Assembly (NCBI GenBank): GCA_047967505.1
Contig: CM106538.1
Source: Dipteris shenzhenensis
Taxonomy: Eukaryota
DNA: 64,000 bases
Direction: 5' to 3' (one strand)
Made by a program: the position numbers and the translations under genes. Below are positions 10,398 to 43,026 of this stretch, one piece after another (the first letter of the stretch is position 1; each line of letters begins with the position of its first letter). The notes beneath the pieces are model-generated. The model saw nothing but the letters and a program-made list of their open reading frames with translations. It ran no database searches and had not been told where the DNA came from.

Positions 10398-10400
<3 letters not shown>

Positions 10401-10494
<94 letters not shown>

Positions 10495-10533: not shown

Positions 10534-10534
10534 A

Positions 10535-13756: not shown

Positions 13757-13768
13757 TGGTATCAGAGC
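13757..13768 (+). promoter_or_regulatory. Primer-binding site complementary to the tRNA-iMet 3' end
   Basis: TGGTATCAGAGC immediately after the LTR. Confidence 0.92.
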
Positions 13769-19304: not shown

Positions 19305-19401
19305 GAGAGAGACAGACAGACACACAGATAGACAGACAGACAAACAGAGAGATAGAGAGAGACAAAGAGAGAGAGATAAAGACAGAGAGAGAGAGAGAGA
19401 G
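19305..19401. repeat. GA/GACA compound microsatellite
   Basis: gagagagacagacagac...gagagagag. Confidence 0.9.
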
Positions 19402-19689
19402 AAATATGGAAAGAAAGATGTATTAACATCCACAGCGAGAGGCCTCACAGGCCTATGAGACAAAGTACAAAGTACACCAAAAAGGGAAAAACAAAACTCA
19501 TACAAGATTCAGTGGGATGGAGCAAAGGATGCACTAGAGCTCTTACTGAGTGCTAAAATGCTAAACTGATCTATAGAGCTCAATAGCTCAAGCAAAAAAA
19601 TCAAATACAAATTAGAGACTAGCTGAAGTAGGCTAAGATCCCTCTCTCAGTGATTCAAGTTGCTTGCATATCATCTATCTCCTCTTCCT

Positions 19690-21330
19690 CGATCCCAATG
19701 TGTCTTGGATCTAGCTCAAATGCGAGGGGTGTGGTTGTCCTTTATAGAGCACACCTGGGACCACTCACATCTATGAACTGGAGAGAGAGGAGCATGCACG
19801 ACATATGTGGGTGCGAGTTCAGCTACATGATACACATCCAATTTTCATTGCAGTGAGCTACTTTCCCCACACACATCATCCTACACACGAGAAGTCACCA
19901 CACTGATGGGCACAGCCCATATGAGACTATTCATGATGACATCACAAAGCTCTCTAGACAGGGGAACACTCTCTTCCTTGGTAACTTCAATGCACGTACT
20001 TGAAATAGACAGGTTGGCCTGCTAGGTTTCGAAGATAATTCCATCATAGTATTAGAGATGGATGCAACAAAGCTAGGAATTGTGAGGCACTTGGTAGTAG
20101 ATGCAGATGCACCAATGACAGCATACAAGAGGCATCTACTCAAGTTTGGGGCTATCCATGACTTGATCATATATAGCAATATTCAAAGATGGCCATCATC
20201 TTGGGGGTGCACTTGTTTTCCACATGGCAGAGGGAGAAGCATAGTGGACTACTTGTTGGGCCTACTAGACTTTGCCTCACGGATATGCGACTTTACTATG
20301 CCTCCTCCTCTCGGTGCCAACCACTCATACCTTTCTTTTTGTATCTCAGCTGCCATGCCAACCATGAGGAGGACCTGTGGCCACCCACTCACATTTAGAT
20401 CCATTTTGATCATGTTCTTGGCCTGGTGCATGTGAGCCACCTAGCCTCAGAGCTTCTAGTCTTACTTGGAGATGATATGGACCTCATCCATGCCTCAGAT
20501 ACCCTTGACTCAGTGATACAAGATGTTGCCACCATATTCTTTCCCACAACTCAACCTGCACATGTCCCAGATGGGAAGATGCCCCAAAACCCCTGGTTTG
20601 ACAATGAGTGTAGAGAGGTAAGAGACCACCTCACACATGAGCGAGCATTGGGTGTCATTTTATTTCACTAGAGGCACAACGGATCTCATGCCGAGGCATA
20701 AGTGATGCCAAAATTGAATCAATAAACTCAATAACACGAATACATAGGCAATTTGCAATGGACACGAAAACAATACCTTCTATTATTCTCTGACAATATA
20801 AGCCTCAACCCTACAGGTTTTTTGGAATTACAAGTATTGAAAGATGACTCGACTATGAACCCTATGCAGCTGCATGACTCTAAGACTAGCTATGGCTCAC
20901 ACCTCTTTGGCTCGTGGCCTCAACAAAAGGAAGGATCTAATCACCTCCATGCTTGATATACTAAGCAACGGAGAGAAGTCGGGTGCCACTCTCAAACTCG
21001 TAATCCTCTAGAAGATGCTTGCTATCAACCAAGGGATGTCCACATGTACTTTATGTATTGTCTAAGCTTTAGGCACATGCATGGTCCAATGAGCTTCTAG
21101 TGACCACCTCTTGATCATGCAACCAACCAACCGACTTCGCACAACACATAATATTTGGACCCCTTGAGAGGAGTCCCCAATAGTAAGAAGAGGTATTTTC
21201 TCATACCCATGATGCATGAGTTGATCGTTTCCTTTTGCACGATCATTTCCTTTCATAGAGGATATCCTAGTACCGGCTTGGGGCTCATGTCGGAGGGAAA
21301 GCCGCCCATCCCCATCATAGATCCAGTAGT
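19690..21330 (+). mobile_element. LINE, left part (APE endonuclease and linker), interrupted by element B
   Basis: GVVVLYR, LGNFNART (GDFNAR-like), SIVDYLL and ANHSYL motifs. 21256-21330 aligns with the LINE at about 10665-10745. 20683-21255 does not align and may be a separate insertion. Confidence 0.7.
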
Positions 21331-21356
21331 AACACTTATTTCATTAATTTTGGACT
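21331..21356 (+). repeat. Left TIR of element B
   Basis: Exact reverse complement of 40720-40745. Confidence 0.95.
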
Positions 21357-22105
21357 CATATGTCTACTTTTGGACTATTCCTTAAAATCCTTCCCAACTG
21401 AAAAGTTTACTTTATGAAACTGTCATTCGAGAATCAAAAGTTTACTTTCTGGCACTATCATTTTCACATAAGACATTTCAAAATATCTCTCTACAATGTT
21501 GTACAAATAATGCAAAAACTACTATTAAATCCTAAATTTCTATTTCTTGTTTATAAGAATCATATTCTTAAAATAAAAAATCCGAGTTATTAGTTTAAAT
21601 CCATGAAAAACCATGCTATTGAGGATTCACAACATTTTAAAAATGTATACATAAGAGACCTGTAAGACTCTTTTTACTTTCAATGCAGAAAACTATAACA
21701 CTCTTGAATATTCAAGAAATTAAAAGGTTTATATACACATGAGACATGATGGAAGCCTCTTTTGTACTCCAAAAAGTAGCAATAGCTATGCTTGCAATTT
21801 TACATTATCATGTCATAAGTTTTACAACAAATATTGCTCTGGATGAGTCTTTGTACAAAGGATCTCCTGTGGCCTTTTCAATAATTTAATTTTTCCTTTA
21901 CAATGAGTTTAGTACAAATGGGCGATCCAAACATTTGCTTGTTTGAATGTCCTTTTCTATCATGATCACAGAAATGAGCGATCCAAACATTTGCTTGTTC
22001 AGAATGTCCTTTCTGTCGTCACTTGTCGCTTGGGTGCCATCTTCATTCACTCTCATCTGACAACCACCACCACCTTCACTCTTTCTCGATATTTGAATGG
22101 TGTTA

Positions 22106-25100
22106 TCATGGGCATTCTTCATTTGCGCTATCTCCTTCTACTTCCTCCCGGGCGAGCATCTTTGTGAACTCTGTAATGTGCGTAATAATTGGTTGCGGTA
22201 ATTTTATTTTGTCTTCTACATCATACCCCATGTGCTTCTTTGTTTTCTTTGACCTTGATTTCCAGGATAACTATGACTGTCTCTGTGGAAAGTCTTGAAA
22301 TTGCTTCATGGTTTGGGACCCATTCCTTTTTCAAACAACTACTATACAATGTACTGTTATCTTGGTTCTCCTTCCTGCCCCTTGGCTCATACCATACCGC
22401 TGTAAATGTTGTAGCTCTCCCCCAGTCATCCATGCTCACGTCAACTACTTTTGCAACCCAAAACTTCACGTTCTCATGTTCATCATCCGATGGTCGAACT
22501 GCAACAAAACAATGGACATCTATGTCTATTTGTGGCATAAACTCTCTCTTCTTGGGTCCACAATATGGACGTGGGAGCAACGATTCAAACTCATTTTCAA
22601 AGAGACCACATGCTGGACGCAAGTCATTACCAACATTTGGCCAAAATAAAGGCCGTTCTGCCTTAATATCATCTTCTCGCATTTTTGCAAGGTCCTTTAT
22701 CAATTGGTAGGTCTTGCTAATTACAACAGTAGTGTGTTCCTTCCAAGAGGGCTTCCAATCAGGAAATCTCCGGAGCATTTCCTCTTTGTATGCAATAAAA
22801 GCTTTTAAGCCTTCTATTTCACCTTTGGATTTCTCGCTGAATTCTTTTATAGGAGCCCATGTTGGATGCATTTCTTTGCTCGGGATTGAAGTTAAGAGAG
22901 AGTAAGGTTCTTCAGGTTCCCATTTTGTATCAAGAGAATAGTGTTGCCATTGCATCACTGGTTTTTCATCCTTTAAGAAAAATCGAAAATAGTGTGGAGC
23001 GCTATGACCAATCAGGGCATCACCACCTTTTTGTATGAAAGGTAGAATAAAGCTCTTCCAATCATACATCCTCTCAACCATTGAGCATATTGTTCCTTCC
23101 TTACGGCCACCAACTTGCCTCCCGCATTTTCTTATCAAGTCATCCATTGTCTCCATGTCCTTGTGTTTTAGTTCTCTTGAAACTGTGCTAAATACCTAAT
23201 CGATATCCTCATGTGTGTGCCCAACCAACAAAAACCCAACTTCAATCTCATTGAAGATTCTATGAGCGATTAGCATTGAGCAAAATGCAAAGAAGAGTAC
23301 ATTCTTATTCTCTCGTCCACAATTGTCTGCTTGTATTCTCAAAGTTGCTGGTAGGCGACCTTTTTCTGCATGTACATTGTGAATTGCCTTCATAACGGAT
23401 GTTACAACTTGATTGCTATCGTGTAGATGCAAGGAATCAATCCATATGTCTGCAAAAAACTTAAATCCGTGCACTAACACTCCACATAGATGTGTCTTTA
23501 AAAAGTATTTGCCTTGTAGCTTAGGTGGAGTGTTAACGAATCGAGGTAATGTTGTTGTATTTTGATCCATACCATCTACAATAATGCACATGTACTCATT
23601 TGGGTGAGAAATAGCTTGCTCCTTCCAAAATGCATATTTTATTCTAGAATGTCGAACAAGTCCATGATGAAATTCTCTCTTTCTTTTGTAAGCTTCTTTT
23701 TGTTCTGGAGATGTTGCACTCTCAAGTGCTCGCTTTAGATCATCACAGTCGTTGCACTTTGACATTTTTTGCCTCTTTGGGATTTTAACATGTCCAAAGC
23801 TTTTTTTCCAAAGAGTATACAAAGTATGAAAAGATGCCGGTGCATGCCCTCTTTGCCTCTGTGTTTCTCCAATAGAGTTAAATACTTCTTTTTTGGTCAA
23901 ACCTATCGGAAGATGCATTTCTGATAGGTGGGGTTGTGGTAAAGCATTTTCATAAATGTAATCTTTCAAAATTGCTGTTGCCGCAACCGTTGAGGCTCTT
24001 GTTTTGGGCCTTCCTATGTTTCCATGAATGTTAAATTTAACTCCATACTTTGCTTTATTAGCCAAATTCCAATATGTGCCATGTGATAATCCTGTAATAA
24101 TGCGATATGCATTATTGCATATACTTTTTCCATTTATAAGAGGCCTTATTTGATGTCCTGAACTTCGCCTTCTCTTATCATTTACAAGAAAGCAAGACAA
24201 TCTCGTGAGTAGGTATTCATTTCTTCTGCTTCCTTTCCTTTGCCATACATGTTCTCTACAACCCTTGATGTCATGTAAGTTAATGGATCGCATACATGTA
24301 TGCTTACAGCATGTAGATCGCATTGCTTTTAGCATAACATCTTCATTCATTACTCTTATTCTCTTTGGTTGCTTTTCTGGATCTGCCTGCACTCGTTGTC
24401 TTTTCATGCATCTGTATGTCCGTTTTGGGACCTTCTGTTCATTCTTATTTGGATTTGTGTAGTTCTCCTTGTAAGATTTATTTGTCACGTTGTTTTCATG
24501 AGATGTTGCATCCTTGATCTTATCACTCTGACAGTCAAATACTGAATATTCCTTTGTTGATGTCATCCTTGCTTTTGATACATTCGTCAAACCATTTGTA
24601 ACATTTACAAGTTCACAATCAAAGTCAAACACCGAATAGTCCTTTGTTGATCTCATCCCTACTTTTGATACAATCGTAGAACCACTTGTCACAATGGCAT
24701 TAGAGTGTCCCGAATGATCTTCAAACTCATCTATTCCTGAGAGAACATCACTCATTGATGCACTTTCTATGGATTTCATAACTCCATAGTCAGTGGTGAT
24801 AGACTGTCCAGAATGATCTTCAAACTCATCTATTCCTGAGAGAACATCGCTCATTGATGCACTTTCTATGGATTTCATAACTCCATAGTCTTGAAACTCC
24901 TCTACTCCAGAGAGAACATCACTCATTATACTATCGTGCATGATTTCCATAATTCCATAGTTACCTGCTTTGACACCAAGAACTTTATCAGTATCCATGA
25001 AGCCATCCATGCTTGAAGATATAACACTTTTCACATCTTTGCCCAAGTTCTCAATGTGCATGAACTCATCCACCCCGGATAAGGCATCACTTGTGAAATA

Positions 25101-25814
25101 TTTTTCTTTCTCGGTACCAATGAACTCATCGACTTCTGATAAGACGTCAGTGCTATAGTTGAGTGCATTGGAATCATCCATCTCTGAAGGAATAGAGCTT
25201 GGTACATTGGCATATTCTTTCAATTCTTTGATGTTGTAGTATACATTATGTTTATCATTAAAAACCACATGCCGAGTCTTTCCAATCTTTAAAAATTGCA
25301 TGCTCCATCTCAAATCCTTACCTACCTCATAGTAGGGACCATCCAATGACATTGAGTTATCATCCATACCATCATCAGTAACTTTTTGAATTCTCATCTG
25401 CGCAAATGTCCAGTGTTCAACTTGTTCAAATCCCAAGACTTGATCTTCTGCTACATACTTATTTGTAAATGATAACATTTGTAAAATATCTCCCACTCTA
25501 AAATCCAAAGATATGCACTTTGTATTCCTGATGACATGTGTTGGATAAGTCTCATCTCTGTCCCATGCAATAAATGCTTTGTTGGAAGTATTATAGGGCA
25601 TAACATCTCCAAGGATTTCCATATCCCCACACTTATGCTTTAGCTCAACATGTGCACTAAGAATCCTTGATACGATAACCGCTACCTTATCTTCGCCAAG
25701 TCTTCTAAAGTGACAAATAGAATTTCGATCACTTTCATGGATTGTAGCAAATGCAACTACTTCTCTTTTGCAACATAAAATCACCTCCATCCCCGGAATA
25801 AATTTTGTAGCCAT
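22106..25814 (-). pseudogene. Sola-like/DUF7869-type DDD transposase of element B (about 1230 aa; one nonsense codon and one frameshift)
   Basis: Likely ATG at 25814 after a ttgcag acceptor. Motifs IVDGMDQ, QADNCGRENKN and FLLVGHTHEDID*VFS; the TAG at 23196-23198 is in frame with ORF 22221-23156. A frameshift near 22270 restores SWKSRS...KIKLPQ, which parallels WSW...KVKIP in element A, ending at TGA 22106-22108. Confidence 0.9.
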
Positions 25815-25940
25815 CTCCTTTGTGAGTTTCCTCTGCAAACAAGCTGTAACAACCATTATAAAGAACATTAGTCTCTTCTCAATAATCTACTTTATTAATG
25901 ATTTAAAAATCCAGAACGTGTTTGAAAATTTAATTAGACA

Positions 25941-26734
25941 CTAACCAATAACAACCATAAACCCTAAACCCTAAACCGTAAACCAAAACAACCCTAAATC
26001 CTAACCAATAACAACCCTAAACCCTAAACCCTAAACCCTAAACCCTAACCCCCAAACCCCAAACCCTAAACCCTAACCCCCAAACCCCAAACCCTAACTC
26101 CCAAACCCTAAACCCTAAACCCCAAACCCTAAACCCTAACTCCTAAACCCTAAACCCTAAACCCTAACTCCCAAACCCTAAACCCTAAACCCTAAACCCT
26201 AAACCCTAACTCCCAAACCCCAAACCCCAAACCCTAACTCCCAAACCCGAAACCTTAAACCCTAAACCCTTAATCCTAACCCCCAAACCCTAAACTCTAA
26301 ACCCTAACTCCTAAACCCTAAGCCCTTAACCCTAACCCCCAAACCCCAAACCCTAACCCCCAAACCCTAAACCCTAAACCCTAACTCCCAAACCCTAAAC
26401 CCTAAACCCTAAACCCTAAACCCTAACTCCCAAAACCCAAACCCTAAACCCCAAACCCTGAACCCTAAACCCTAAACCCTAACTCCCAAACCCTAAACCC
26501 TAACTCCCAAACCCTAAACCCCAAACCCTAAACCCTAAACCCCAAACCCTAAACCCTAACCCCCAAACCCTAAATCCTAAACCCTAACCCCTAAACCCTA
26601 AACCCTAAACCACCAAACTCTAAACCCTAACCCCCTAACCCTAACCCTCAAACCTTGAACCCTAAACCCTAAACCCTAACTCACCAGACCCCAAATCCTA
26701 AACCCAAACCACGAAATCCTAAACCTTAAATCCT
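25941..26734 (+). repeat. Interstitial plant telomeric array, (CCCTAAA)n with variant units
   Basis: About 0.8 kb of CCCTAAA interspersed with CCCCAAA and CCCTAACTCCCAAA. Confidence 0.97.
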
Positions 26735-26812
26735 ATGAGTGTTTTCAAGTAATATCATTTATTTAAGTAATAGTTTTAATTAGAATTTATAAGTAATAGT
26801 GGAATTGATAGT

Positions 26813-27700
26813 TGGGAGGGTGGTAGTGGGAGAAAGGGAGAGTGGGAAAGTGGAGAAAGGGAGTGTGGGAGGGTGGTAGTGGGAGAAAGGGAGAGTGGGA
26901 GAGGGAGTGGGAATGGGGGCGGTGGGGGTGGGGGTGGGAGAGTGGGAGTGGGAGTGGGAGAGGGAGTGGGAATGGGGGAGGTGGGGGTGGGAGAATGGGA
27001 GTGGGAGTGGGAGTGGGAGTGGGAATGGGGGAGGTGGGGGTGGGGTGAGGGTGGGAGGATGGGAGGATGGGAGTGGGAGTGGAAGGGGTGGGGTGGGGAG
27101 TGGGAGTGGGAGGATGGGAGTGGGAGAGGGAGTGGGAATGGGGGAGGTGGGGGTGGAAGTGGGAGGGGTGAGGTGGGAGGATGGGAGTGGGAATGGGGAG
27201 GTGGGGGTGGAAGTGGGAGGGGTGGGGTGGGAGGATGGGGGAGGGAGTGGGAGTGGGGGAGGTGGGGGGGGTGGGAAAATGGGAGTGGGAGTGGGAATGG
27301 GGGAGGTGGGGGGGTGGGAAAATGGGAGTGGGAGGATGGGAGTGGGAGGGGTGAGGTGGGAGGATAAGGGTGGGAGAATGGGAGTGGGAGTGGGAATGGG
27401 GGGGGAGGGGTGGGGGTGGGAGGATGGGAGTGGGAGTGAGACGTGTAGGTGGGAGGATGTGAGTGGGTGGGAGAATGGGAGTGGGAGTGGGAGTGGGAGT
27501 GGGAGTGGGAATGGGGGAGGTGGGGGTGGAGTGAGGGTGGGAGTGGGAGGGGTGGGGTGGGAGGATGGGAGTGGGAGAGGGAGTGGAAATGGGGAAGGTG
27601 AAAGAATGGGCGTGGGCGTGGGAGTGATAATGGGGGAGGTGGGGTGGGAGGATGGGAGTGAGAGTGGTGTGGGAGGATGGGAGTGGGTGGGAGAGAGAGA
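26813..27700 (+). repeat. G-rich low-complexity array, degenerate (GGGAGT)n
   Basis: Continuous gggagt/gggggt/gggagga runs with almost no C on the plus strand. Confidence 0.95.
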
Positions 27701-28014
27701 GAAGATAATCTAATAGAGAGGCCAATGGGAGAGGAGATAATGTTATAGAAGGACCAATGAGAGAGAAGCACTCAAAACCCTAGTTTTTCTTATATATACT
27801 CTCCTTCTCTCATTGTTTCTCTCATTTCAACAAGGAAGAGCAAGAGGAGAAGCAAAAAGAGGAGGAAGAGCAAAAGCAAGCACAAGCAAGCACAAGCATC
27901 GATTTCAACTTTTTTCCAGGTACTGTTTTTAAAATTTGTATTCTTTGAAAATTTTGAAGGATAGATTTTTAGAGAGAGAAAAGAAGAGAGACAGTCTTGC
28001 TGCCTCGACAGCAA

Positions 28015-30170
28015 AAGAGAGAAAGAAAGAGAGAGGGAGAGAGACGAGAGAAGGGGGGGGAAAGAGAGGGGAGAGAAAGGGAGGGGGGAGAGAAGGGGGA
28101 AGGGGGAAAGAGAGGGGAGAGAGGGGAGAAGCAGCGAGGGGGGGGAGAGAGAGAGGGGAGGGGGAGGCCGCTGCCGCGAGGGGGGGAGGGAGGGGAGGGG
28201 AGAGGGAGGGGGGGCGGCGAGAGAGGGAGGGGGGGCGGGGATAGAGAGGGGGAAGAGGGAGGGGAGGCGAGGGTGGAGAGGGAGGGGAGGGGGCCGCTGC
28301 CGCGGCAGCGGCAGCGAGAGAGGGGGAGGGGGGCGAGAGGGAAGGGGGGAGAGAGGGGGCAGCGAGAGGGAAGGGGGGGGGAAGAGAGAGAGAAGGGGGG
28401 GGGGCCGCTGCCGCGGCAGCGGCAGCGAGAGAGGGAGGGGAGGGGAGAGAGAAGGGGGGGGGGGGGGAAAGGGAGGGGAGGAGAGAGGGAAGGGGGGGGA
28501 AGAGAGAGAGAGGGGGAGGGCCGCGGCAGCGAGAGAGGGAGGGGAGGGGAGAGAAGGAGGGGGGGGAAAGGGAGGCGAGGAGAGAGAGAAAGGGGGGGGG
28601 GCCGCGGCCGCTGCCGCGGCAGTGAGAGAGGGGAGGGGGGGGAGAGGGAGCAGCGAGAGGGAAGGGGCGGGAAGAGAGAGAGAGGGGGGGGCCGCTGCCA
28701 CGGCAGCGAGAGAGGGACGGGAGGGGGAGAGAAGGGGGGGGGGAAAGGGAGGGGAGGAGAGAGGGAAGGGGGGGGAAGAGAGAGAGAGGGGGGGGGGGCC
28801 GCTGCCGCGGCAGCGGCAGCGAGAGAGGGAGGGGAGGGGAGAGAGAAGGGAGGGGGGGAAAAGGGAGGCGAGGAGAGAGAGAAAGGGGGGGGGGCCGCGG
28901 CCGCTGCCGCGGCAGCGAGAGAGGGGGAGGGGGGGGAGAGGGAAGGGGGGAGCGAGAGAGGGGGGAGAGGGAAGGGGGGGGGGGGGCCGCGGCCGCTGCC
29001 GCGGCAGCGAGAGAGGGGGAGGGGGGGGTGAGGGAAGGGGGGAGCGAGAGAGGGGGGAGAGGGAAAGGGGGGGGCCGCGGCCGCTGCCACGGCAGCGAGA
29101 GAGGGAGAGGGGGGATAGGGAAGGGGGGGCGGCCGCGGCAGCGAGAGAGGGGGAGGGGGGGGAGAGGGAAGGGGGGAGGGGCCGGGGGCAGCGAGAGAGA
29201 GGGAAGGGGGAGAGAGAGAGAAGGGGGAGGGGCCGTGGCCGCTGCCGCGGCAGCGAGATAGGGGGAGGGGGGGGAGAGGGAAGGGGGGAGGGGGCGGAGG
29301 GAGCGAGATAGGGGGAGGGGGGGGAGAGGGAAGGGGGGAGCGAGAGAGGGGGGAGAGGGAAGGGGGGGGGCCGCGGCCGCTGCCGCGGCAGCGAGAGAGG
29401 GGGAGGGGGGGTGAGGGAAGGGGGGAGCGAGAGAGGGGGGAGAGGGAAAGGGGGGGGCCGCGGCCGCTGCCGCGGCAGCGAGAGAGGGAGAGGGGGGGGG
29501 GAGGGAAGGGGGGGCGGCCGCGGCAGCGAGAGAGGGGGAGGGGGGGGAGAGGGAAGGGGGGAGGGGCCGGGGGCAGCGAGAGAGAGGGAAGGGGGAGAGA
29601 GAGAGAAGGGGGAGGGGCCGCGGCCGTTGCCGCGGCAGCGAGATAGGGGGAGGGGGGGGAGAGGGAAGGGGGGAGGGGGCGGAGGGAGCGAGAGAGTGGA
29701 GGGAGAGAGAGAGAGAAGGGGGGGGGCCGCGGCCGCTGCCGCGGCAGCGAGAGAGGGAGGGGGGGGGAGAGAGAGAAGGGGGTAGCGAGAGAGAGGGGAG
29801 GGAGAGAGAGAGGGGGAGAGGGGGAGAGGGAAGGGGTGGGGAGAGGGAAGTGAGAGGGGGAGCCGCTGCCGCGGCAGCGAGAGAGGAGGGGGGGGAGAGA
29901 GAGTAGGGGGGAGATGCGAGAGAGGGGGGGAGGGAGAGAGAGAGAGAGGAGGGGAGGGGCCGCTGCCGCGGCAGCGAAAGAGAGGGAGGGGTGGAGAGAG
30001 AGAGAGAGAGAGGGGGAGGAGAGAGAGAGAGGGGATGGGGGGGGAGATCGCGGCAAGTGAGAGAGAGTGGAGAGGAGAGTGGGGAGCGCAAGTGAGAGAG
30101 AGGAAAAAGGTGAGGAGAAAGGAAGAGAGAGAGAGAGAGGGGAAATGAAGAGGAGGGGAGAGAGCAGACT
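28015..30170 (+). repeat. GA-rich array punctuated by the 16-bp palindrome CGCTGCCGCGGCAGCG
   Basis: About 15 full or single-mismatch copies between purine-only tracts, with two more near 31577 and 31744. Confidence 0.93.
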
Positions 30171-30229
30171 AAGATGAGAGGAAACGTAGACTAGAGCGGA
30201 GAGGAAAGAGAGAGAGAGAAGAGTGAGAG

Positions 30230-31050
30230 AGATGAAAATTTAGAGAGGGAGGACACGAGAAAGTACGATCGAGATAGAAAATCTTACCAATGAAGAGGAG
30301 AAATGAGTGGGCGACGATCGAGACAAGATGAAGAGATCGAGATAGAAAATCTTACCAATGAAAAGGAGAAATGAGTGGGCGACGATCTAGACAAGATGAA
30401 GAAGCTACGATCAATGAGGCATATGAGAGGAGATTGGTATGTGATTTAGTCTAAACTTAAACAAACAAAACTATAAACCTTGGTGTTTGATGAAAATTTA
30501 GAGAGGAAGGGCACAAGAGAGTACGATCGAGATAAAAAATCTTACCAATGAGGAGAAAAAATGAGTGGGCGACGATCAAGAAGAGATAAAGGAGAGATGT
30601 TTTGATGGAAGAATTTGGGAGCTACGATCAATGAGGCATATTAGAGAAGATTGGTGTGTGATTTAGTCGAAACTTAAACAAACAAAACTATAAACCTTGG
30701 TGTTTGAAAAAGAAACGTGTGGAAACTAGAATTTCAAAATTTCCCGCCTTTTTTTAAACTATGAATCCTTGTGTTTGAAAAGACAAACCTTGGTGTTTGA
30801 AAAGAGAAACGTGTGGAAACTAGAATTTCAAAATTTCTCACTTGAATCCTTGTGTTTGAAAAGACAAACGTGTGAAAACTTGAAAATTGTGATAAAAGAC
30901 AACCTTGTGTTTCAAAAGACAAACGCGTGGATGTGAAAATTGTGATAAAAGACAACCTTGTGTTTCAAAAGACAAACGCGTGGATGTGAAAATTGTGATA
31001 AAAGACAACCTTGTGTTTCAAAAGACAAACCCCTGGATGTGAAAAGACAA
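30230..31050. repeat. Complex tandem repeats inside element B
   Basis: Three copies of cgagata.aaaatcttaccaatga...atgagtgggcgacgatc, followed by roughly 48-bp units of gataaaagacaaccttgtgtttcaaaagacaaacgcgtggatgtgaaaattgt. Confidence 0.85.
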
Positions 31051-32705
31051 ATGTATGCTAAAAGCAAAACTTGTAGAAACTTCAATTTTAAATTTTTCTT
31101 TGTTTTTGAATTTAAAATGAGTTTCACTTTCATTTTTAATTTACTAGTTTAATTTAGACTATAATGCATTTTGTTTTGGAATATAAAGAGTATAATTTTA
31201 ATTTTATTACATTTTAAATTAAAATTTTAAAAGTAGTTTAACTTACATTCGTTATTATTACTTTAATTTATTTCTTTTTAGGGAGAATATTCGTTATTAT
31301 TACTTTAATTTATTTCTTTTTAGGGAGAATTAATATATTCTTCTAGGTAAATATTAAATTTTTAATTTTAAGTCTTGTTTTCTTTATTTTACGTTATTTT
31401 TTCATAAACTTTAAGTTAAACTACTTTATAGTTTTTATTATATAAATTCAAATTTATTAAGATTTTAACTTCTTATTAATGTGAATGTTCAATTCTTATG
31501 AGTTGTAAGTAAATTAAATATAAATTTTATCTTTTTTAAAATGAGAAGGAGAAGAGAGAGAGAGAGAAGGGGGGGTCGCTGCCGCGGCAGCGAGAGAGAA
31601 TGGGGGGGGAGAGAGAGAGAAAGGGGTGGGAGGATAATGTGAATGTTCAATTCTTATGAGTTGTAAGTAAATTAGTTTTTGAAAATATAAATTTTATCTT
31701 TTTTAATATGAGAAGGAGAAGAGAGAGAGAGAGAAGGGGGGGTCGCTGCCGCGGCAGCGAGAGAGAATGGGGGGGGAGAGAGAGAGAAAGTGGTGGGAGG
31801 ATGGGAGTGGGAGAGGGAGTGGGAATGGGGAAGGTGAAAGAATGGACGTGGGCGTGGGAGTGAGAATGGGGAAGGTGGGGTGGGAGGATGAGGGCGGCAG
31901 CGAGAGAGAAGGGGGGGAGAGAAGGGGGGGAGAGAGAGAGAGAAAGGGGTGTGAGTTTAAAAAAGATAAAATATAAATTTTATCTTTTTTAAACTCACAA
32001 CCTTAGTGTATTAAAAAGAATAATGGAAAGATTATTTTTTGCTTTTAATTCGCAACCTAAGGATATTAAAAAGAACAATGGAAAAGAAATTATTTCTTGC
32101 TTTTCTTCGCTTCGACGGTTGGTGTAGTCTAGATTAGCATAGATTAGTTTGTCCTTAGAGGAGAGAACTCCAAAAAAACCAATCAAAGCCATGCTCAAAA
32201 TTTCCCGACTAGTTCCTAATCGGAGTCAGTCCATTCGTTCACATTCACATTCGGTTTCACAGACACAACAACCCTACCATTTAAGCAACGATTAAGGTTT
32301 TTAAACTTTCAAGATGATTGAAAGTTGTATCAGTGGACATGACAGATTACAGTTGTGGAAGTTGACAGAGCATTTTACACTTATATCAGTTGCGGGAGTT
32401 GACAGAGCATTTTGTACTTATATATGACAAACTTCAAATTTGTATTCAGAGATCATTGTAAATCCTTATTTTTTTTCACATTTATGCTCTAAGCCTTGTA
32501 AAGCCTTTTAGGCTATTCCCAAAGCATTTATGCTCTAAGCCTTGTAAAGCCTTTTAGGCTATTCCCAAAGCATGAAATTGATACTTATATGATTAGGAAG
32601 AATACAAACTGGAGGTGTATTAATGGGACTCATTGTACTTTTGATTTTTCAAAGTAATTGTAGTTTGTCAAAGTACTTAAAATTTGTGTTGTGCTTGAAT
32701 ACAGG

Positions 32706-35700
32706 ATGGATCTTGAGGCTACAGCATTTGTCAATGGTATGTCACTGAAATACAATGGAAGAATTTATGCCCCAAAGGACTTCACAAACTGGACAGTTGT
32801 TGACACAACAAAGAAAGCATGGTTCTTGGTCTTAAGTAAAGGAAATCTCATTCTAGTGATGACAAAGAGAGAGTTGGAGAAAGATGAGTGCGCATCAAAT
32901 GTATCTTTCTCCAAGAGCAATTTGATTCAAGGGGGCACCTTAGTAGGAATAAAAATTGAAAAAGACAGCACTACAATGATGATTTACACAAAGTCAAGAA
33001 TGAGCAACAGATCGTTTCTTCTTTCTAAGAAAGATGCAATGCACTTTGTGATGCCGCCGCCAAAAGCACCTAGATTTCCTGAATTGGTTCCTGCATTGGA
33101 GATCCTTCAACATGTGTGGGAGGAATTTCCCATTGAGGAAGCAAGAAAAATGCAGTCAAAGATTATCCTTGAATACTTTCAGGGTGTCATCCAACAAGGT
33201 TCAACTTCATTGGAGGGACCTAAGGTGCAAGAATCCACACATGAGAAAGGAAGTGATGAGACACGCCATGTAGATTTGGTTCATGGTAATACAAATGAGA
33301 GAGGAAGTGGAGTGGATGAGACAGAACACATTGTAGCAATGGATGAGGGTCTTGTACACGTGGATGCTTACAAGGGATCTACATCTGAGACAGGAATTGA
33401 ATTGGTGGAGACCGGACATGCACATGCATCTCAGACAGAAATTGAATTGAGTGAGACACGACATGCATCAGATAAGACAGGACATGCACACACATCTCTT
33501 GTTCATGGTATTACTCACTTAGATGGTGTAACTCATGAAGTTGATGGAATAACAGAACAAGTGAAGCCCTTAAGTATACCTGAAGTTGAGGCAATAGAAG
33601 AAGAAGTAGGGCGATCTAAAGCAGTTCACATTGAGCCCCTAAAAAATAAACCTCGACGTCAAATGCAAAAGGCAAGTACTTCACGAGCTACAGTTCCAAG
33701 TCCTATAACTGGAAAAAGAGGTCGTTCATATACAAAGAAAGGGCAAAGAAGAGAAGAGGAAGAACATGAAGAGGATGCGGAGGGTCTTGAAATGGAGTCA
33801 GATCTAGAAGCAGAAATGTTATCAATGAAGAACCTAAATCTTCGCTTGAATGAGGCTGTGACAGATGAGGATCCAGGATATATATGGGGCCAGAAGACTC
33901 AAGTTATACATGCTTCATCAGTGGTCAAAGCAAGTGTCTTCACCAACAGCAGGACCTTAGATACAGCCTATGCTGAAAAGATTTTTCAGGCTTTGATTGA
34001 TGGAAAAAAACCAGTTGTTTCTAATTTGGTACTCCGTCCAAGAACATTTTGGCCAGTCATGGGAGATTATAGTCAATCCATCAATTTCTCTCAGCCTATA
34101 GATTTTGAGATGCAATTCACTAAGTTCCTCGGAAAACAAGTTCCCTCACTTCAAGAAGGACAGAGTTCAGTGAATGATCCAGAACGACATATAAGGGATG
34201 CCAAGAGAAATTTCTTAGCTCATTGTACATTTGAGGCAATAGATGGTCAGCACTATGCCTATGCTTGTAATGAGCGCTCTAGAGATGCATACAAGAAAGG
34301 AGAAATTACTTATCAAACTTTCGCGAGTGTGCCTCAATTTCACTACTATTCTGCATGCATCTGTATCTTCAAGAACGAGAAGAAATATTTGATTGAGTCG
34401 GAAAGACTTAATCATGACATTTATGCACTACGAAAAATCACCTCCACTTCAGAGATGTTGCTCAAAGCTAGGACCATATGGAAAACTTTTAATTCTCCTT
34501 TGACCACTCTCAAAAGAACTGCAACTAAAGTGGAAGCGGATAATCTTGTTGACTTCTACACATGCTTGAGTGCCATTGTACCAAGGGGAAAGCAGGAAAG
34601 AGCTGAGGTGATTACAAGCTTCAAGACAGTAAGGGATAGGTATCAAGACTACACAAGCATACTTTTCCGTAGTGATGAAGTTTTTCATCAGATCAAAGAC
34701 GTGTGTCTTGCATGTGAGAAAGGAGATGTTACATATGAGGCTCCATCATTGATTAAAGAGAAGGCAAAGAAGATTGAGAAAAAAGAGATGACAGCTCGGA
34801 TGTGGAGGCCTTTAAGAAACCTACCAGATAAATACGCAAGTCTTGCTGCAGAGAAATTAATGTCAAAAGAATGGTTTTTTGGCAAAAAGGATAAAGATCA
34901 TTGCATGGAAGATAACATCATCCAACAGGTGAAGCGTGATGCAGTAAAGAGTGCAATTGAATATTTATTGGGAGAAAAAAATATTCCAATCAGCCAATGT
35001 AAAATTGATCATAACATTGTGAGGCAGATGGCATCAGCTTTACCGTCAGCTAAACAGAAGGCTTGGGCGCATAAATGGGTGAAGGTAGAAGATGATGGAT
35101 CTGAAATTACTCCCTCTATGAGAAATGACATTCCGGAAAATGTGTATGCATATGCACAAAAAGTCATCAATAACCACACTCTCAGAAAAGAAAAGACTTT
35201 GAACAAGGGCTTTTATTTCATACATGAAATCATTTCAGAGTCTGGAAAGAGTGTTGAGTGCAAGGGAGTTTCATTGAGTGATTTTTTGTCCGACGACACT
35301 GCTTGGGAGAGACCTCAGCTTTTCTTTGTCTATGAAATATCAGCGGATGACATCCGTCCACTCCTTGACAGAATATTACATACCACCATTGGTAGAGTGG
35401 GACAATGTAATATAGTCATATTTGCTGATAAAGATGACAAGGAACAAATGTCTGCTACCCTAGAAAAACAATATGGCAATGAGCTCAAGATTTACAATGG
35501 GATATACTCAAGAAAAAGGGACAAGAGAGAATGCGGTCTCAAGATACAGAGTCTGGAAACCTTTTTCTTGTGCATGAAGAGCCCTTATAATGATCACTCC
35601 TTACAAAACAATATAAGAGGGAATGCAAAGAGATTGCAACTACTGCTGGAAGAGCATGAAGCTCCAAGTCCCCTCCATCGCAATGCAAATCACTATGAAA

Positions 35701-38465
35701 GGCCAGCAAAAAGTGCTGATCTTTTAATTAGTATGATGGAATTTTTGCTACCGCCTGGATGGGAAGTCACATTGTGCCGAATGGGACATCTGTTCGAAGC
35801 TCTTATCAGAAAAGGACACAATGTAAATATTATTGAGAGCCCTGCTTGCTTGGAATACCTTGATACCGTGGCTTCTCTCACAATAAAGTTTGATAAGAAA
35901 GGTCCGATCTCACATGAAGAGGATGACATAGAGCAGATCATGTACGATGAGAGCAAGAAAGATGATGAAAATGATCAAAGCTCTGGATATAATAGTGAGG
36001 ATACCAGCAATAGCAAGGAAGCAGAGGAAGATGGATATGACACTGACCTTGCCTCTGAAGGTTACATAAAAAGACCACGAAGATATGTAGAGGTATGAAG
36101 ACTTATGTTTAATTTTCTTTATTCATTTAAAGGTCTTTTTAAATTTATAATTAATTTAAAATTTTGAATCTCATAATTATTTTATCCTTTTATAGGAGAA
36201 GGGAGAGGAGGAGGATGAGGAGGACATAGTTGGAGCAGAGAATCATGAAAGCTCATCTCAAGAAAGCAAAGCTGCTCTGGCTATCCATCGGATGACTCTA
36301 GAAAATAATCATACATTGCAGCAAATGGAGAAGTCATTTCAAGTTAGGTTTCAAGTTCGAGAACAACCTCTTACTTTTATATTCGATGAAGAGGATATTT
36401 CAATCCTCATAAACTTCAAGAAAGAGGTCAATGACAAGGTTATAATAGCCATCCTCAGGTTTGACACAAACTTTTTACTGACTTTATGCTTTTGTATTTC
36501 CATTGGATCAAATGAACTAATATTCTTTTCTTTTTATTGCAGTATGGTTTTACAACAGCTTCCGCTATATATACAAAGATGTGCATATATGGTCGATCCT
36601 CTTGTTTCTAGTGTACTTAGCAATAAGGAGAAGACCATAGATGACATTTTTAAGTGGTTGCAACCTATTGATTTGACTGCGGCGCGAGTTATCTTTACCG
36701 CATATCACGAAGAGTGAGTATCAATCCCTACCTAGCTTATCTCTTACATTGTGGAGGATTATATCGAATAATAATTATTCTTAATTGATAATGCAGCTTG
36801 CATTGGAGCTTGGTAATTGTGGACATCTTAGCCAAGCAATGCTTCTTTGTCAATTCAATAGCATCTATCCATGGCAGTGTGTCAGAGTAAGTATAACCTA
36901 CTTGTGTCATAATTATGTCAATGAGATGCATCCTATGCAATACACACATTCATTTATGTTTTCTATTTTGATGTGTAGATCTGCTCGAAAGTTGGTAAGT
37001 GCTATAGATGCACTTATGCAAATGGAGGGTGACTTGGAAGATCAAATAGAGTATGTAACATGCCCTGCAGCGAAGCAGAATGATGACCACAGTTGTGGGT
37101 GGAGAGTTGGATATAACTGCTTCTTGCTCCTTGCTCAAATTTTTGATTTGAGAGGCGGTGAAACCTCATTGTCCACATATACAGACTTGCATCTGCAGGC
37201 ATTTATGTCATCTATCATTAAGACATTTATTGATAACGTGGTGGAGCATCCAGAGGAAACATTGGTTGCTACGCCCATAAGTTGTCCTGATGTAACCGCT
37301 GTATTGGACGAAATGGGGAGCTCTTCTGAGGTTAAGGTCATCATTAGCAAGCAACCTCGTGTTTTGACTTTTGGTAGCGAGGAAGTTACAATCCTCTCCG
37401 ACCCTTTGAAAGAGGCTAATGACAAAGTCATGATGGCCATCCTCAGGTTTGATATGAACATCTCTTGACTTGATACTTCAATCATTTGATTCAATCTGCT
37501 TCTAACATTTGTTTATTTATTGCTGCAGTACGGTTATATCTCATTTTCCTAGATCAGTACAGAATCGCGTCTGTATGCTCGATTCTCTTCTTTCAGCTGT
37601 ACTTAGTGATACCAAGAAGACAGTAGATGATGTTTGTTCAATTCTACAACCTTTAGACTTGGATGGCATACTACTTGTCTTTATGCCATACTATGAGAAG
37701 TAAGTATGGTGTCAATCTTTCTTTTACTCTCTTATTTACAATATTGTGTCAATTAATACTTAATATTGTGATAAATCTTATCGCTCTTTATTGGTGATGT
37801 AGTTCACATTGGAGCCTTATAGTATGGGACCTTGATGACAACCATTGTTGGTTTGTCAACTCAATTACAGACTTTCACGGGGTGTTCAAGTAAGTGTTCT
37901 TTTATCATATCATTATGAACATGCATCAAGTTACTATTTACTACACAAATTTACTTTGTCATATGTCATGATGGACAGGTCTGCAAACAAGTTAGTTTCT
38001 GCGATTATGAAAATCAGGGAGCATCAAGACCAACCAAATTTCCAGACACGCCTCGCAGTGGACCAAAAGGACATGTTTAGTAGTGGGTGGAGAATTGCGT
38101 ACAACTTCATGTTGTATCTCAATGACATTTTTGAACATGTCTCCATAGAAGCATATACCAAGCTCGAGCTACAAGATTTTGTGGCTAAGACTGTTCACTA
38201 TCTAACTGCTATCATTGGGAAACAACATGATGGACTCAATGAAGAACCACTTGAATTAGAGACTCAATGCATTCTTCCTACACAAGAAGTGGAGACTCAA
38301 TGTGCATCTACAACATCACATCTTGTAAAGGAGGAAGAGATTAAGTCTATCCCGATTGCACCAGAAGTAGAATCTCAATGTACACCATCCACACAAGTAG
38401 AGACTCAATGTACTCTTAGAGAATCACAGCCTCAAGAGAACTCATCAGACTCTATTCAGTTGTAA
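32706..38465 (+). CDS. Eight-exon cargo gene, about 1707 aa: ParB-like region, degenerate DNA-methyltransferase-like region and two Ulp1 (peptidase C48)-like domains
   Basis: Predicted exons 32706-36092, 36196-36458, 36543-36713, 36797-36886, 36979-37446, 37529-37699, 37803-37889 and 37979-38465. All introns are GT-AG, 82-103 nt, and the frame is preserved (5124 nt). Motifs RTLDTAYAEKI...FEAIDGQHYAYA, HWSLVIVD...FVNS...KQNDDHSCGW and HWSLIVWD...FVNS...DQKDMFSSGW. Confidence 0.8.
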
Positions 38466-38554
38466 AACATGTAGAAAGAAACATGAGTCCTTGAAGATTT
38501 TTATCTTGTTTGTATCGATTAATGATAGTGTTTTTAAAACTTATGTTAAATGTT

Positions 38555-39762
38555 GCAATACATTAGGATATTTTATGATATTTTTTCATTACAATACATT
38601 AGGTTTTACTTTTTTGAAAGTCTAATTTATTATGTACAATACATTAGGTTTTACTTTTTTGAAAGTCTAATTCATTCTTATGTTCCATCACTTTATTTTA
38701 TAGATTTCAATGTACTCAAAATCTATCATTTATTATGTACAGCAAGTATCTCATGATGAGATTCTATTAATTATATCATTCTTGTGTTCCATCATTTTAC
38801 TTTATAGATTTCAATGTACTATCACTATCTTATATGTCTCAAATGACTCCCATTATGGTCTTGCATCCCATCATTTTATTTTATAATGTCTCGCATTACA
38901 ATCTTGCATCTAGTCATCTCGCATTACGGTCTTGCATCTGTAGTTCTATAAATTCCCTAGTAGTCGTTCATCTTCTATATCTCACCCGCAGCAGACACTT
39001 CTTGCACTTTGCTCTTCATGATGAGATTCTATTAATTATATCATTCCTGTGTTCCATCATTTTACTTTATAGATTTCAATGTACTATCACTATCTTATAT
39101 GTCTCAAATGTCTCCCATTACGGTCTTGCATCCCATCATTTTATTTTATAATGTCTCGCATTACGATCTTCCCTAGTAGTCGTTCATCTTCTATATCTCA
39201 CCCGCTCCTCTCCTCAAGCTTGCTCCTTCCTCTCCTCAAGCTTGCTCCTTCCATCTTGCCCGCTAGTAGTCGTTCATCTTCTATATCTCACCCGCAGCAG
39301 ACACTTCTTCCACTTTGCTCTTCTTACCTTACTCCTCTCCTCAAGCTTGCTCCTTCCTCTCCTCAAGCTTGCTCCTTCCATCTTGCCCGCAGCCTTGCCT
39401 CCTCTTCTCAAGCATACTCCTTTCATCTTGCCTTATCTCCTCTAGTTACCTTCCTCACTCTCGTTACCTTCCTCACCTCGTTCGTCTTCTATATCTTTCC
39501 TCACTCTCTTCCTCACTCTCGTTACCTTCCTCACCTCGTTAGTCTTTTATATCTTTCCTCACTCTCGTTACCTTCCTCACCTCGTTCATCTTCTATATCT
39601 CACCCGCAGCAAAAACTTCTTCCACTTTACTCTTCTTACCTTACTCCTCTCCACACTTCTTCCACTTTACTCTTCTTACCTTACTCCTCTCCTCAAGCTT
39701 GCTCCTTCCATCTTGCCCGCAGCCTTACCTCCTCTTCTCAAGCATACTCCTTTCATCTTGCA
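38555..39762. repeat. Nested local duplications and CT-rich repeats
   Basis: Repeated blocks such as catgatgagattctattaattatatcatt, gttcatcttctatatctcacccgc and cctcaagcttgctccttcc. Confidence 0.8.
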
Positions 39763-39768
39763 GCCATT

Positions 39769-40203
39769 ATGGATCTTTTTAAGGTAATCGATTCTGTCGA
39801 GCAAGCCATTAGCAGCCTCAAAGAATGGATTGCCGAGAACCAAGGAAAGAGAGAGGAGAGAAAGCAAAATCCAGCTCCATTAACCCAGTACGAGAAGGAT
39901 GACTTTGCTTGTCAGAAGGGCCTAGAGAAGGAAGAGGAAAGAAAAATAAGTATGGCTACTACTGAAATAGATAAATTGCAGTCATATAGGAGAGAGTTGA
40001 TAGACTTTCAAAGTGAGATATCTTCGCGTGTGGCTCGTTATGGAAGATTTTCCCCCGAGGAAGCGCAAGCCATTCGGAATAAACAAAGTGTTATGCAAGA
40101 GAAAATTCATCAATCCTTACTTCTCTTCTATAATTTTAACTACATCGATGAGGATGAGATGAGCTCAGCTCTTGAATGGGTTGAATTTAGGCTAAGGACT
40201 TGA
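39769..40203 (+). CDS. 144-aa charged, coiled-coil-like protein of unknown function inside element B
   Basis: MDLFKVIDSVEQAISSLKEW...VEFRLRT*. The ATG follows a ttgcag acceptor, and composition changes sharply from the repeat-derived upstream part of ORF 39079-40203. Confidence 0.55.
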   Translation: MDLFKVIDSVEQAISSLKEWIAENQGKREERKQNPAPLTQYEKDDFACQKGLEKEEERKISMATTEIDKLQSYRRELIDFQSEISSRVARYGRFSPEEAQAIRNKQSVMQEKIHQSLLLFYNFNYIDEDEMSSALEWVEFRLRT

Positions 40204-40719
40204 AAATAGAAAATTCATCAAATTGAATGGCTGTAGTCTTGAAAATAAATTTGCCTTCCACTGAGAGTCTTATTGTAACTTTTGGTGTAATTTGCCTTCC
40301 AATGAGAGTCTTATTGTAACTTTTGGTGTTTTTAAACACCTAAATTATAAATATTGTGAGAGTTTGCTACTTCCACTTGTAACTTTTGAAAGTGTTTCCT
40401 AAACACTATTATAAATATAAAGTGAGTTTACAATTAATGGACCACTCTTTTTTGTGTAACTTATCTCAGGCTTAACTTTTGAAGGTGTTTATTAACACCA
40501 TTAAATATTAAGAGAGTTTACAACAACCTAATCTTATTTTTTCATGTAACTTATCTAGATTGCGTTAAATTTTATAATTTTAGTTTCATGTCCTTAAAAA
40601 ATATATAAAAAAATGCTTGTTTTTATGTTTTTATATGTGCTTTGAAGATTGGGTTTTTCTTAAATTTTATCTGAAAACTAGTCCAAAAGTATATGTAAAA
40701 ATGAATTTGTACATTGACA

Positions 40720-40745
40720 AGTCCAAAATTAATGAAATAAGTGTT
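40720..40745 (-). repeat. Right TIR of element B
   Basis: Exact reverse complement of 21331-21356, followed by TAGT. Confidence 0.95.
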
Positions 40746-40749
40746 TAGT

Positions 40750-41950
40750 TTGGCATACATATTCATGCTCCCTCTATGATGTCCTGGGGCAGGCACCACT
40801 TGATATGTCCTCTATGCTTAGACCCACCACATGTCACTTGTTTACGAGACAAAAAATGTACGGGCTACATAACCAGAGATCATGAGATCATGAGATCATG
40901 AGGGACTGTGCACTGAGCAGTTTGCACATGGACAGGAGGTTTTGACCCCGGTTCTAGCACAGCTATCCAACCATGCCATATGCCATGGCTTCTGACCTGG
41001 AGCACTACCACCATAGTACCAATACACAAGGCAAGTGATCCCATGGACACTAGGAACTACCGCACTCTTATGATTTACCACACTTTGGCTAAGATATATG
41101 GGTCAATAATAGAGAGGGAGACCAGCAGCCACACAAAGGGTCACGAGCAATAGGCTCTTGGGTAGCAGGCAAGTTTTTCGAGACAACACTCCACATTGGA
41201 CCATATCTTCACCTTGAGGGCTATCATTGAGGAGGCAAAGTTGAGGCACCAAAAAGTCTACACTTGCTTTGTAGACTTTCATAAGGCATTTGATATGTCC
41301 TATGTTCCAGCCTGATCAAGAGGTTACAAGAGTTGCACCTCCTACATGATCTGGGGGTTATGAGTTTATATGAGTCCATCAAAGGGAGAGTACATGCCCC
41401 AGAAGGTCTATCAAATTGGGTTGAGAGCACTATCGGAGTGAAGCAAGGCTACCCCCTCTCACCAACACTCTTTGGGATTTATATTTGATGAGATCACATC
41501 CTTTAAAGATTGCCTAGGTGGAGAGAGTTCACTTTTGGTTGACCTGATGGTATAGATACTGTTATACATAGATGACATAATTATCCTCAGCAAAGGGATT
41601 ACAAAAACATCTACAGGCCCTAGAGGTGTTTTGCAAAGAGAGAGACTTGATAGTTAACCTTGGAAAAACTAAGATTATGATCTTCAACACCTCACGGGTA
41701 GTCATAGCTTCACGTATCAAGATGAGATAGTGGAGATAGTGTAGTCTTGCACATATTTGGGGGTAGTGTTCAATAGACCAAGTTTCACAATGCAGATACA
41801 GTAGACTCACACCAAATTTCATGATGATTCATGATGCAAGTATAATAGACATGAGGACGGGATGTCTTGGCTCAACGACTAAAGAGGCAGTGCTTCCAGG
41901 CACACTTCTAGGACCCTTCGACGAGGGGTTGGCTTTTTGACACACTGGTG
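40750..41950 (+). mobile_element. LINE, right part (reverse transcriptase), continuing 19690-21330
   Basis: Aligns colinearly with about 10745-11945. VKQGYPLSPTLF near 41438 and TYLG near 41751. Confidence 0.85.
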
Positions 41951-42924: not shown

Positions 42925-42925
<1 letters not shown>

Positions 42926-42964
<39 letters not shown>

Positions 42965-42969
42965 ACTCA

Positions 42970-43026
<57 letters not shown>
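42926..43026. repeat. (CT)n microsatellite
   Basis: Interrupted CT run. Confidence 0.95.

Follow-up and report, generated by a model that had tools for sequence, protein, structure and literature searches.

A probable Sola-type DNA transposon of 19.4 kb with a large Ulp1-like gene in Dipteris shenzhenensis

The segment between positions 21331 and 40745 of a 64-kb stretch of Dipteris shenzhenensis contig CM106538.1 (the window, in whose coordinates all positions are given) raises the question of whether 19,415 bp that hold a transposase-like frame, a long block of tandem repeats and two further genes moved together, and, if so, as what kind of transposon. Our results suggest that the segment is probably a large DNA transposon of the cut-and-paste type, with a DUF7869 transposase, that was recently inserted in one event into a decayed repeat of the long interspersed nuclear element (LINE) type, and that Sola is its most likely superfamily. 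An earlier description of the locus from its letters alone, which we call the sequence-only reading, had proposed a giant Sola-like transposon with a chromatin/SUMO cargo; it was right in kind, as to a Sola-like transposon bounded by terminal inverted repeats (TIRs), moved as a unit and carrying a Ulp1-like gene, and overstated in novelty and certainty.

The evidence for a single unit lies in its ends and flanks. The two TIR arms are 26 nucleotides each and 100% complementary (AACACTTATTTCATTAATTTTGGACT and its complement), and a search for this 26-mer with up to three mismatches found two sites in the window, namely both element ends, where 100 shuffles gave an expectation of 0.00. Outside the arms lies a target site duplication (TSD) of exactly 4 bp, TAGT on both sides, and the match is not extendable to 5 bp. 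When the element and one TAGT are removed, the rejoined flanks align without a gap across the junction with a paralogous repeat at 10671-11822 (808 of 1159 positions identical, about 70%; E value 3e-138), in an alignment that begins 72 bp to the left of the insertion point. Since this paralogue aligns gaplessly with a single TAGT, the duplication is fixed at 4 bp. One TIR-bounded unit with a 4-bp duplication, inserted in a reverse transcriptase (RT) type repeat, is what the sequence-only reading had proposed, and the empty site that it suggested seeking in other copies of the LINE has a stand-in within the window itself, as good as a single window can offer.

The open reading frame (ORF) pieces in the flanks contain decayed RT motifs of the type without long terminal repeats (non-LTR), which we take to resemble those of plant LINEs. 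Against the Pfam profile RVT_1, the flanks give two collinear matches (profile positions 42-80 and 106-134; E values 0.055 and 0.092) and the paralogue gives one (145-202; E value 1.6e-05). Though all of these lie below the 29.6-bit cut-off, the motifs make it reasonable to label the interrupted repeat as LINE-like.

The element ends look like working transposon ends, judging by their repeated motifs. Two copies of TTTTGGACT lie in the first 46 bp of the element and two more, in inverted orientation, in its last 66 bp; these are four of the five matches to this motif in the window, a total of five that none of 100 shuffles reached. Another end motif is also repeated at both ends, where the left has CAAAAGTTTAC and the right has the near-complement GTAACTTTTG. 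Three palindromes near the right end (GGTGTT-TTTA-AACACC, GTGTT-TCCTA-AACAC and GGTGTT-TATT-AACACC) have spacers of 4-5 bp, the same length as the TSD, and may be either sites for a transposase dimer or traces of joined ends.

The frame on the minus strand near the left end encodes the presumptive transposase. Its DUF7869 (PF25273) matches lie on either side of one in-frame stop (profile 4-108 at 116.9 bits and 110-190 at 31.8 bits, for a Pfam gathering cut-off of 26 bits), and all 93 of the proteins that a homologue search returned at E values of 0.001 or less, from 2207 candidates, carry PF25273. The DNC..NKN and GH...D motifs named by the sequence-only reading are present, and candidate catalytic aspartates at DGMDQ, ADNC and HEDID are kept in 92 of 92, 91 of 92 and 90 of 91 homologues, respectively. 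These three positions fit a DDD transposase with putative catalysis by aspartates, while a glutamate close by keeps a DDE enzyme possible. What the same reading had missed is the stop, a TAG that sits right after the third conserved aspartate. Glutamine occupies this position in 78 of 91 homologues (15 of 15 in the first alignment), and because the homologue alignment is collinear across the stop, the TAG is a nonsense change and not an intron. Lying inside the frame, it means that the C-terminal 324 residues cannot be made by the present copy. An autonomous element would have an uninterrupted transposase frame, and this one is broken; the present copy is therefore mobile only if another copy supplies the enzyme.

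Named relatives of the transposase come from sea urchins, bivalves, amphioxus, a coral, a nemertean, Chara and Riccia. The transposase profile gave 48 pattern matches among viral contigs, none of them confirmed, and PDB sequence searches with it returned chance or acidic low-complexity matches only and no Sola transposase structure. One Saccostrea homologue (P0040) also has an OTU cysteine-protease domain (PF02338), and two other bivalve DUF7869 proteins also carry PF24595 or PF26133; proteases of ubiquitin-like proteins may thus have been linked to the DUF7869 transposase family more than once. Within the present frame, a 99-bp tandem duplication (24701-24961, 96% matches) adds a repeated acidic peptide to the non-conserved N terminus; many other local duplications in the element are likewise young.

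The second gene of the element is large and spliced. Our independent gene model, built from the sequence, has 8 exons and 7 GT-AG introns of 82-103 bp between 32706 and 38465 and comprises 1707 codons with no internal stop, exactly the length of the intact product that had been estimated at about 1707 amino acids (aa). Exon 1 alone is an open frame of 1129 codons. Its relatives are few: HMMER found 10 matches at E values of 0.001 or less (4 at 1e-10 or less) in 1.84 billion representatives, the best of them 53% identical over a 99-aa fragment and the only named one a 177-aa hypothetical protein of the lycophyte Diphasiastrum complanatum. No Pfam domain was found in the first 1129 residues of the protein, no family in any of the 6 relatives examined (of the 10) and, at E values up to 10, only five single-member chance matches in a 13-row alignment of the exon-1 ORF. 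A search for homologues of near-full length gave none at 0.001 or below among 7480 candidates, a poorly suited tblastn search of plasmids gave no match, and PDB sequence searches with the exon-1 ORF and its alignment gave chance or acidic low-complexity matches only. An AlphaFold model of residues 400-1143 with 12 relatives reached a predicted local distance difference test (pLDDT) value of 44.5, too poor for a fold search. Pfam, the Pfam domains of the relatives and the PDB searches thus offer no evidence for a 'chromatin' cargo, and this part of the earlier description falls away. A ParB/Srx reading of a conserved 'DGQH' stretch in exon 1, taken from Atlas scores of 0.76-0.78, found no backing in Pfam or PDB either.

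The same Atlas, in which scores are feature cosines rather than alignments and the line for acceptance is 0.9, places residues 400-1090 near two unnamed Streptophyta clusters, one at 0.97 (813 aa, 62 members) and one at 0.93 (1673 aa, 55 members). Such neighbours would be in keeping with a gene family that is repeated and has members as long as the large gene.

The last 520 residues of the large protein consist of two tandem modules that are identical at 94 of 234 aligned residues and have three intron positions in common. The Ulp1/SENP (peptidase C48) signature is HW, then D-S 17 residues on, and then Q-x-N-x-x-D-C-G. Module 1 reads ...AYHED-LHWSLVIVD...FFVNS...KQNDDHSCGW, in the arrangement HWSLVIVD..(17 residues)..NS, and has the His, the Gln and the Cys, with Asn at the position of the triad Asp, 17 residues after the His. 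Module 2 reads ...YYEN-SHWSLIVWD...WFVNS...DQKDMFSSGW, with His, Asn and Gln, and Ser in place of Cys. We consider it probable that the modules have a fold of the C48 type, and protease activity at best an even bet.

The alternative, to which we give somewhat less than an even chance, is that the modules are inactive pseudo-enzymes or binding modules, or that the likeness to Ulp1 is spurious and the protein an unrelated orphan. Several results weigh on this side and against a Ulp1-type enzyme: both modules have Asn where the triad Asp is expected, and the second has Ser for the Cys, Peptidase_C48 (PF02902) has no match on the separate exon ORFs even at E values up to 10 (the domain is split over three exons), a PDB sequence search with exon 5 and a homologue search with 58 candidates found nothing relevant, and the AlphaFold model of the exon-5 alignment has a pLDDT of 41.5, too poor for a fold search. 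On the other side, HW..(17 residues)..[D/N]S and Q-x-D/N-x-x-x-C-G-W are kept, with conserved intron positions and the spacing of C48, and the top three named Atlas clusters for exon 5 are all PF02902, a lead only, as their scores of 0.88-0.89 lie below the line. Moreover, the open 5.1-kb frame argues for present or recent selection on the protein. Of the SUMO/Ulp1 cargo that had been claimed, the likeness at the level of motifs therefore stands, with the Atlas lead beside it, but the assignment to C48 finds no Pfam match on the exon ORFs and meets an altered triad.

As to the superfamily, the names to be considered include Sola, reportedly described by Bao et al. in 2009, and piggyBac, whose target is TTAA. 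Sola elements are described as having a DDD transposase, 4-bp TSDs and TIRs of 11-1124 bp, as measuring 2-9 kb with some elements above 15 kb, and as present in moss and rare in flowering plants (PMC10741241, in the part available). They have also been reported in non-flowering plants, including ferns according to PMC6786969 (also PMC9033089). The present element has TAGT on both sides, conserved Asp positions that point to a DDD transposase, and a perfect TIR whose 26 bp fall within the range for Sola. We conclude with fairly good confidence that it belongs to the Sola superfamily, an assignment set by these features (DDD, 4-bp TSD, TIRs).

Unlikely, in our estimation, is the view that DUF7869 marks a separate, so far unnamed DDD/E superfamily with 4-bp duplications that is not Sola. 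It draws on the fact that the placement goes by such features, that Pfam names the domain only DUF7869, a name not found in the literature searched, and that a survey from 2017 reports no Pfam model for Sola (PMC5751038, in part). Other points, too, tell against a plain Sola label. It follows described features; a Glu (in 82 of 91 homologues) and an Asp stand beside the third Asp in HEDID, so that DDD versus DDE is unsettled by sequence; and the best relatives, which come from metagenome or Logan assemblies, are 35-37% identical over the full length. Likewise, in a FastTree phylogeny of the core (414 columns, with rows covering less than half dropped), the window protein forms a long branch that is sister to a clade of metagenome and Logan proteins, apart from the clade of Chara and Riccia and apart from the animal clades as well. 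What speaks for Sola nonetheless is that a DDD transposase, a 4-bp TSD other than TTAA and TIRs together make up its definition in the accessible portion of PMC10741241, the same equation that the sequence-only reading had made. Among the other superfamilies with 4-bp TSDs, Ginger1 is described as integrase-like, Kolobok as specific for TTAA and AcademX as having an XPG nuclease (PMC10045372 and PMC9587614, both in part); Pfam found no integrase-like or XPG nuclease domain in the element ORFs, and the TTAA specificity of Kolobok and piggyBac speaks against these two. In addition, all named mollusc homologues are from bivalves, which matches a report of Sola being restricted to bivalves among molluscs (PMC10294476, in part).

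If the element is a Sola transposon, the next question is whether its large gene belongs to it. That the 1707-aa gene and the 144-aa ORF downstream of it are foreign to the transposon family, through a later insertion or recombination without TIRs or a one-off capture of host genes, we consider quite improbable: a single copy has been seen, the nearest transposase relatives of about 1050 aa lie on contigs of about 3.4-5 kb and hint at compact relatives, and a divergent DUF7869 ORF elsewhere in the window has no large gene beside it, but no inner TIR pair surrounds the large gene, the flanks and the TSD indicate that all that the TIRs enclose arrived in one event, barring a later insertion without a trace, the G+C content (GC) is similar in the large gene (0.40) and the transposase (0.38), and the Atlas proximity to clusters of 55 and 62 members, a lead only, is what would be expected of a repeated, element-borne gene. 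Specifically, a scan of the element for inverted pairs of at least 13 bp more than 3 kb apart found none that brackets the large gene, as a nested insertion of the kind that the sequence-only reading had considered would have; the pairs that it did find are the outer TIR, the subterminal motif, a 14-bp pair at 24323/31054 that does not enclose the large gene, and GC-rich satellite palindromes. Two further points temper the case for one unit with its own gene family: with one copy seen, movement as a unit rests on the TIR, the TSD and the paralogous empty site, and the cargo-bearing lineage of the sequence-only reading is a candidate at most; and 10 weak HMMER relatives sit oddly with two Atlas clusters of more than 50 members each.

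The layout of the element is that of three genes around a central block of repeats. The transposase and the 1707-aa gene point outward in opposite directions from this block of about 6.6 kb, and the third gene is the 144-aa ORF, of which the earlier claim of a coiled-coil ORF holds for the frame at 39769 but finds only weak coiled-coil matches in Pfam (Table 1). Tandem Repeats Finder (TRF) assigns 6,026 of the 19,415 bp to tandem repeats, mostly in 25953-31824; the earlier estimate was about 6.5 kb of structured repeats. As about one third of the element is tandem repeat, its size owes as much to the growth of repeats as to gene content. A telomere-like array with higher-order variant units begins about 85 bp upstream of the first ATG of the transposase; a search of the literature for telomere arrays within TIR transposons found nothing relevant. 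The G-rich strands of this array and of the adjoining satellites point in opposite directions. Among the arrays of the AT-rich stretch, 11 have at least 96% matches and 5 of them are 100% identical.

Table 1. Positions of the element, its parts and the interrupted repeat in the 64-kb window
Feature	Position	Strand	Remarks
Left portion of interrupted RT-type (LINE-like) repeat	21258..21330	+	Paralogue alignment
Left TSD copy, TAGT	21327..21330		Single 4-mer at the matching place in the paralogue alignment
Left TIR	21331..21356	+	26 bp, begins AACAC
Two subterminal TTTTGGACT copies	21348..21376	+	One inside the left TIR
DUF7869 (Sola-like) transposase frame	22221..25886	-	1221 codons, one internal stop; first in-frame ATG 25868
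In-frame TAG	23196..23198	-	Context GAT-TAG-GTA, directly after GHTHEDID
Degenerate plant-type telomere-like array (AACCCTA)n	25953..26735	+	783 bp, 111 units, 78% matches
G/GA-rich strand-asymmetric satellites	26814..30168	+	About 3.4 kb, GC up to 0.76, 385-bp higher-order unit
AT-rich spacer, many short tandem duplications	30199..32573		Upstream of the 1707-aa gene
1707-aa spliced gene, exons 1-4	32706-36092, 36196-36458, 36543-36713, 36797-36886	+	
1707-aa spliced gene, exons 5-8	36979-37446, 37529-37699, 37803-37889, 37979-38465	+	
Ulp1-like module 1	36196..37446	+	Exons 2-5
Ulp1-like module 2	37305..38465	+	From the tail of exon 5 through exon 8
CT-rich low-complexity region with local duplications	38466..39768		
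Charged, coiled-coil-like ORF, 144 aa	39769..40203	+	ATG 39769; weak coiled-coil Pfam matches
Three small palindromes GTGTT-N4/5-AACAC	40325..40499		245-420 bp from the right end; built of the element's terminal pentamers
Right TIR	40720..40745	-	26 bp
Right TSD copy, TAGT	40746..40749		
Right portion of interrupted RT-type repeat	40750..41792	+	Paralogue alignment, RT motifs
Paralogous insertion-free copy of the RT-type repeat	10671..11822	+	Empty-site stand-in

Taken as a transposon of this kind, the element would move by way of a transposase multimer that attaches to the TIRs and to the subterminal TTTTGGACT / CAAAAGTT(T)AC motifs, cuts out the entire 19.4 kb and inserts it anew, with a staggered cut at the target that would leave the 4-bp duplication TAGT. 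The large gene would then be an accessory gene borne by the element. By analogy with the Ulp1-like KIU and VANC genes of VANDAL Mutator elements, it may help the element against silencing by the host, and its protein might do so either through protease activity that is weak or altered or by binding ubiquitin-like proteins.

Several known systems invite comparison. Zisupton (Boehne et al. 2012) reportedly makes 8-bp TSDs and has a SUMO-protease-like domain within the transposase protein; Zisupton and the present element share the tie to such a domain, but the present TSD measures 4 bp and the domain is encoded by a gene of its own. With Sola, as described in the available part of PMC10741241, the element shares the DDD positions, a 4-bp TSD of no fixed sequence, a TIR within the range of 11-1124 bp and a host outside the flowering plants (moss there; ferns per PMC6786969), and a length above 15 kb is known from Sola as well. 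Unlike the Sola elements reported, of which membership here is judged by features only, it has three genes including one that is Ulp1-like, and its interior holds about 6 kb of satellites, a telomere-like array among them. No Sola-type element with a Ulp1-like gene was found in the literature searched.

Ulp1 domains do occur in other plant transposons, namely the Mutator-like elements (MULEs) and VANDAL elements (PMC13317346 and PMC6117577, both in part). According to the same portions, the KIU genes of KI-MULEs (Hoen et al. 2006, cited in both) encode a C48-like domain whose role is still unknown, and the C48-like domain of VANDAL is thought to serve the element against silencing. The present element is like KI-MULEs and VANDAL, so far as these sources go, in being a plant TIR transposon with a separate C48-like gene beside the transposase, and unlike them in that they have a MULE transposase, TSDs of 7-12 bp and, in KIU, a domain that the Pfam C48 model recognises. 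The module found here, in contrast to KIU, is tandemly duplicated, has Asn for Asp and gives no Pfam C48 match on the exon pieces. AcademX is also large with a short TSD (3-4 bp) and occurs in bivalves, as do many of the DUF7869 homologues, but it encodes an XPG nuclease (PMC10045372, in part), which Pfam did not find in the ORFs of the present element. Earlier publications already describe Sola elements above 15 kb, the presence of Sola outside the flowering plants, and Ulp1 domains in plant transposons of other kinds (PMC10741241, PMC9033089, PMC6786969, PMC13317346, PMC6117577), and the description of the element as giant accordingly holds for its 19,415 bp but not for novelty, as the available text of PMC10741241 already has Sola elements of more than 15 kb.

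Our results lead us to speculate, as a rather doubtful proposal, that a Sola-like lineage of non-flowering streptophytes gained a tandem Asn-variant Ulp1-like gene independently of Mutator/VANDAL, and that it and the transposase gene are driven divergently from the telomere-repeat and G-rich block. The protease-like helper would then be convergent, and the telomere-like array would serve as a regulatory or chromatin-targeting module.

Sola is among the least studied DNA transposons, and we know of no assay of Sola transposase activity. Of the 3203 recently active clusters that a survey of 1007 plant genomes reports, Ginger and Sola combined account for 9, and element length was capped at 12 kb (PMC12973397, in part); according to that description of the survey, an element like the present one would therefore have been missed. 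The young 19.4-kb copy, in which the ends are perfect, a single nonsense codon breaks the transposase and the 1707-aa gene is intact, is a good start for finding active Sola elements in the green lineage, and also for asking what role Ulp1-like genes play in transposons and how DNA transposons grow large. Should other copies turn out to carry the gene as well, two or more unrelated superfamilies of transposases would have taken up Ulp1-like helpers.

Outside the window, the exact TIR 22-mer has two matches in metagenome contigs of the Joint Genome Institute (JGI); as neither extends past the 22-mer or shares other window sequence, we regard them as chance matches and not as further copies. Three public sequencing runs from two studies contain part of 32300-40900 (shares 0.60, 0.39 and 0.06), one of them labelled 'algae metagenome', and no RNA run was among the runs that match this region. 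Rfam gave no match over the whole window.

The divergent DUF7869 region mentioned above lies at 979-2205 on the minus strand (E value 2.9e-47) and is interrupted between ORFs; tblastn extends the match to 1189-3020, at 23-38% identity to the main transposase, and the large gene has no counterpart alongside. An exact 18-bp inverted pair around it (86-103 and 9009-9026) contains GTGTT-N4-AACAC, the same palindrome that the main element has close to its right terminus, and no matching 4-bp flanks were found for this pair. The genome holds at least two old DUF7869 lineages, which may share a terminal motif. Beside this second gene, satellite arrays at 3640-4520 and 6140-7400 belong to one family in opposite orientation, with about 1.6 kb between them, a layout that recalls the repeat block beside the main transposase.

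The window also contains other transposable elements. Upstream of the main element is a Ty1/copia element at 13022-18559 with LTR-like direct repeats (13022-13757 and 17831-18559, 88% identical), of which a second, inverted copy reaches the right window edge (59716-64000, 88.8% over 4.3 kb); another copia RT occupies 48014-48772. Finally, CT/GA microsatellites at 10346-10555, 19331-19418 and 42922-43027 lie near both copies of the LINE-like repeat.

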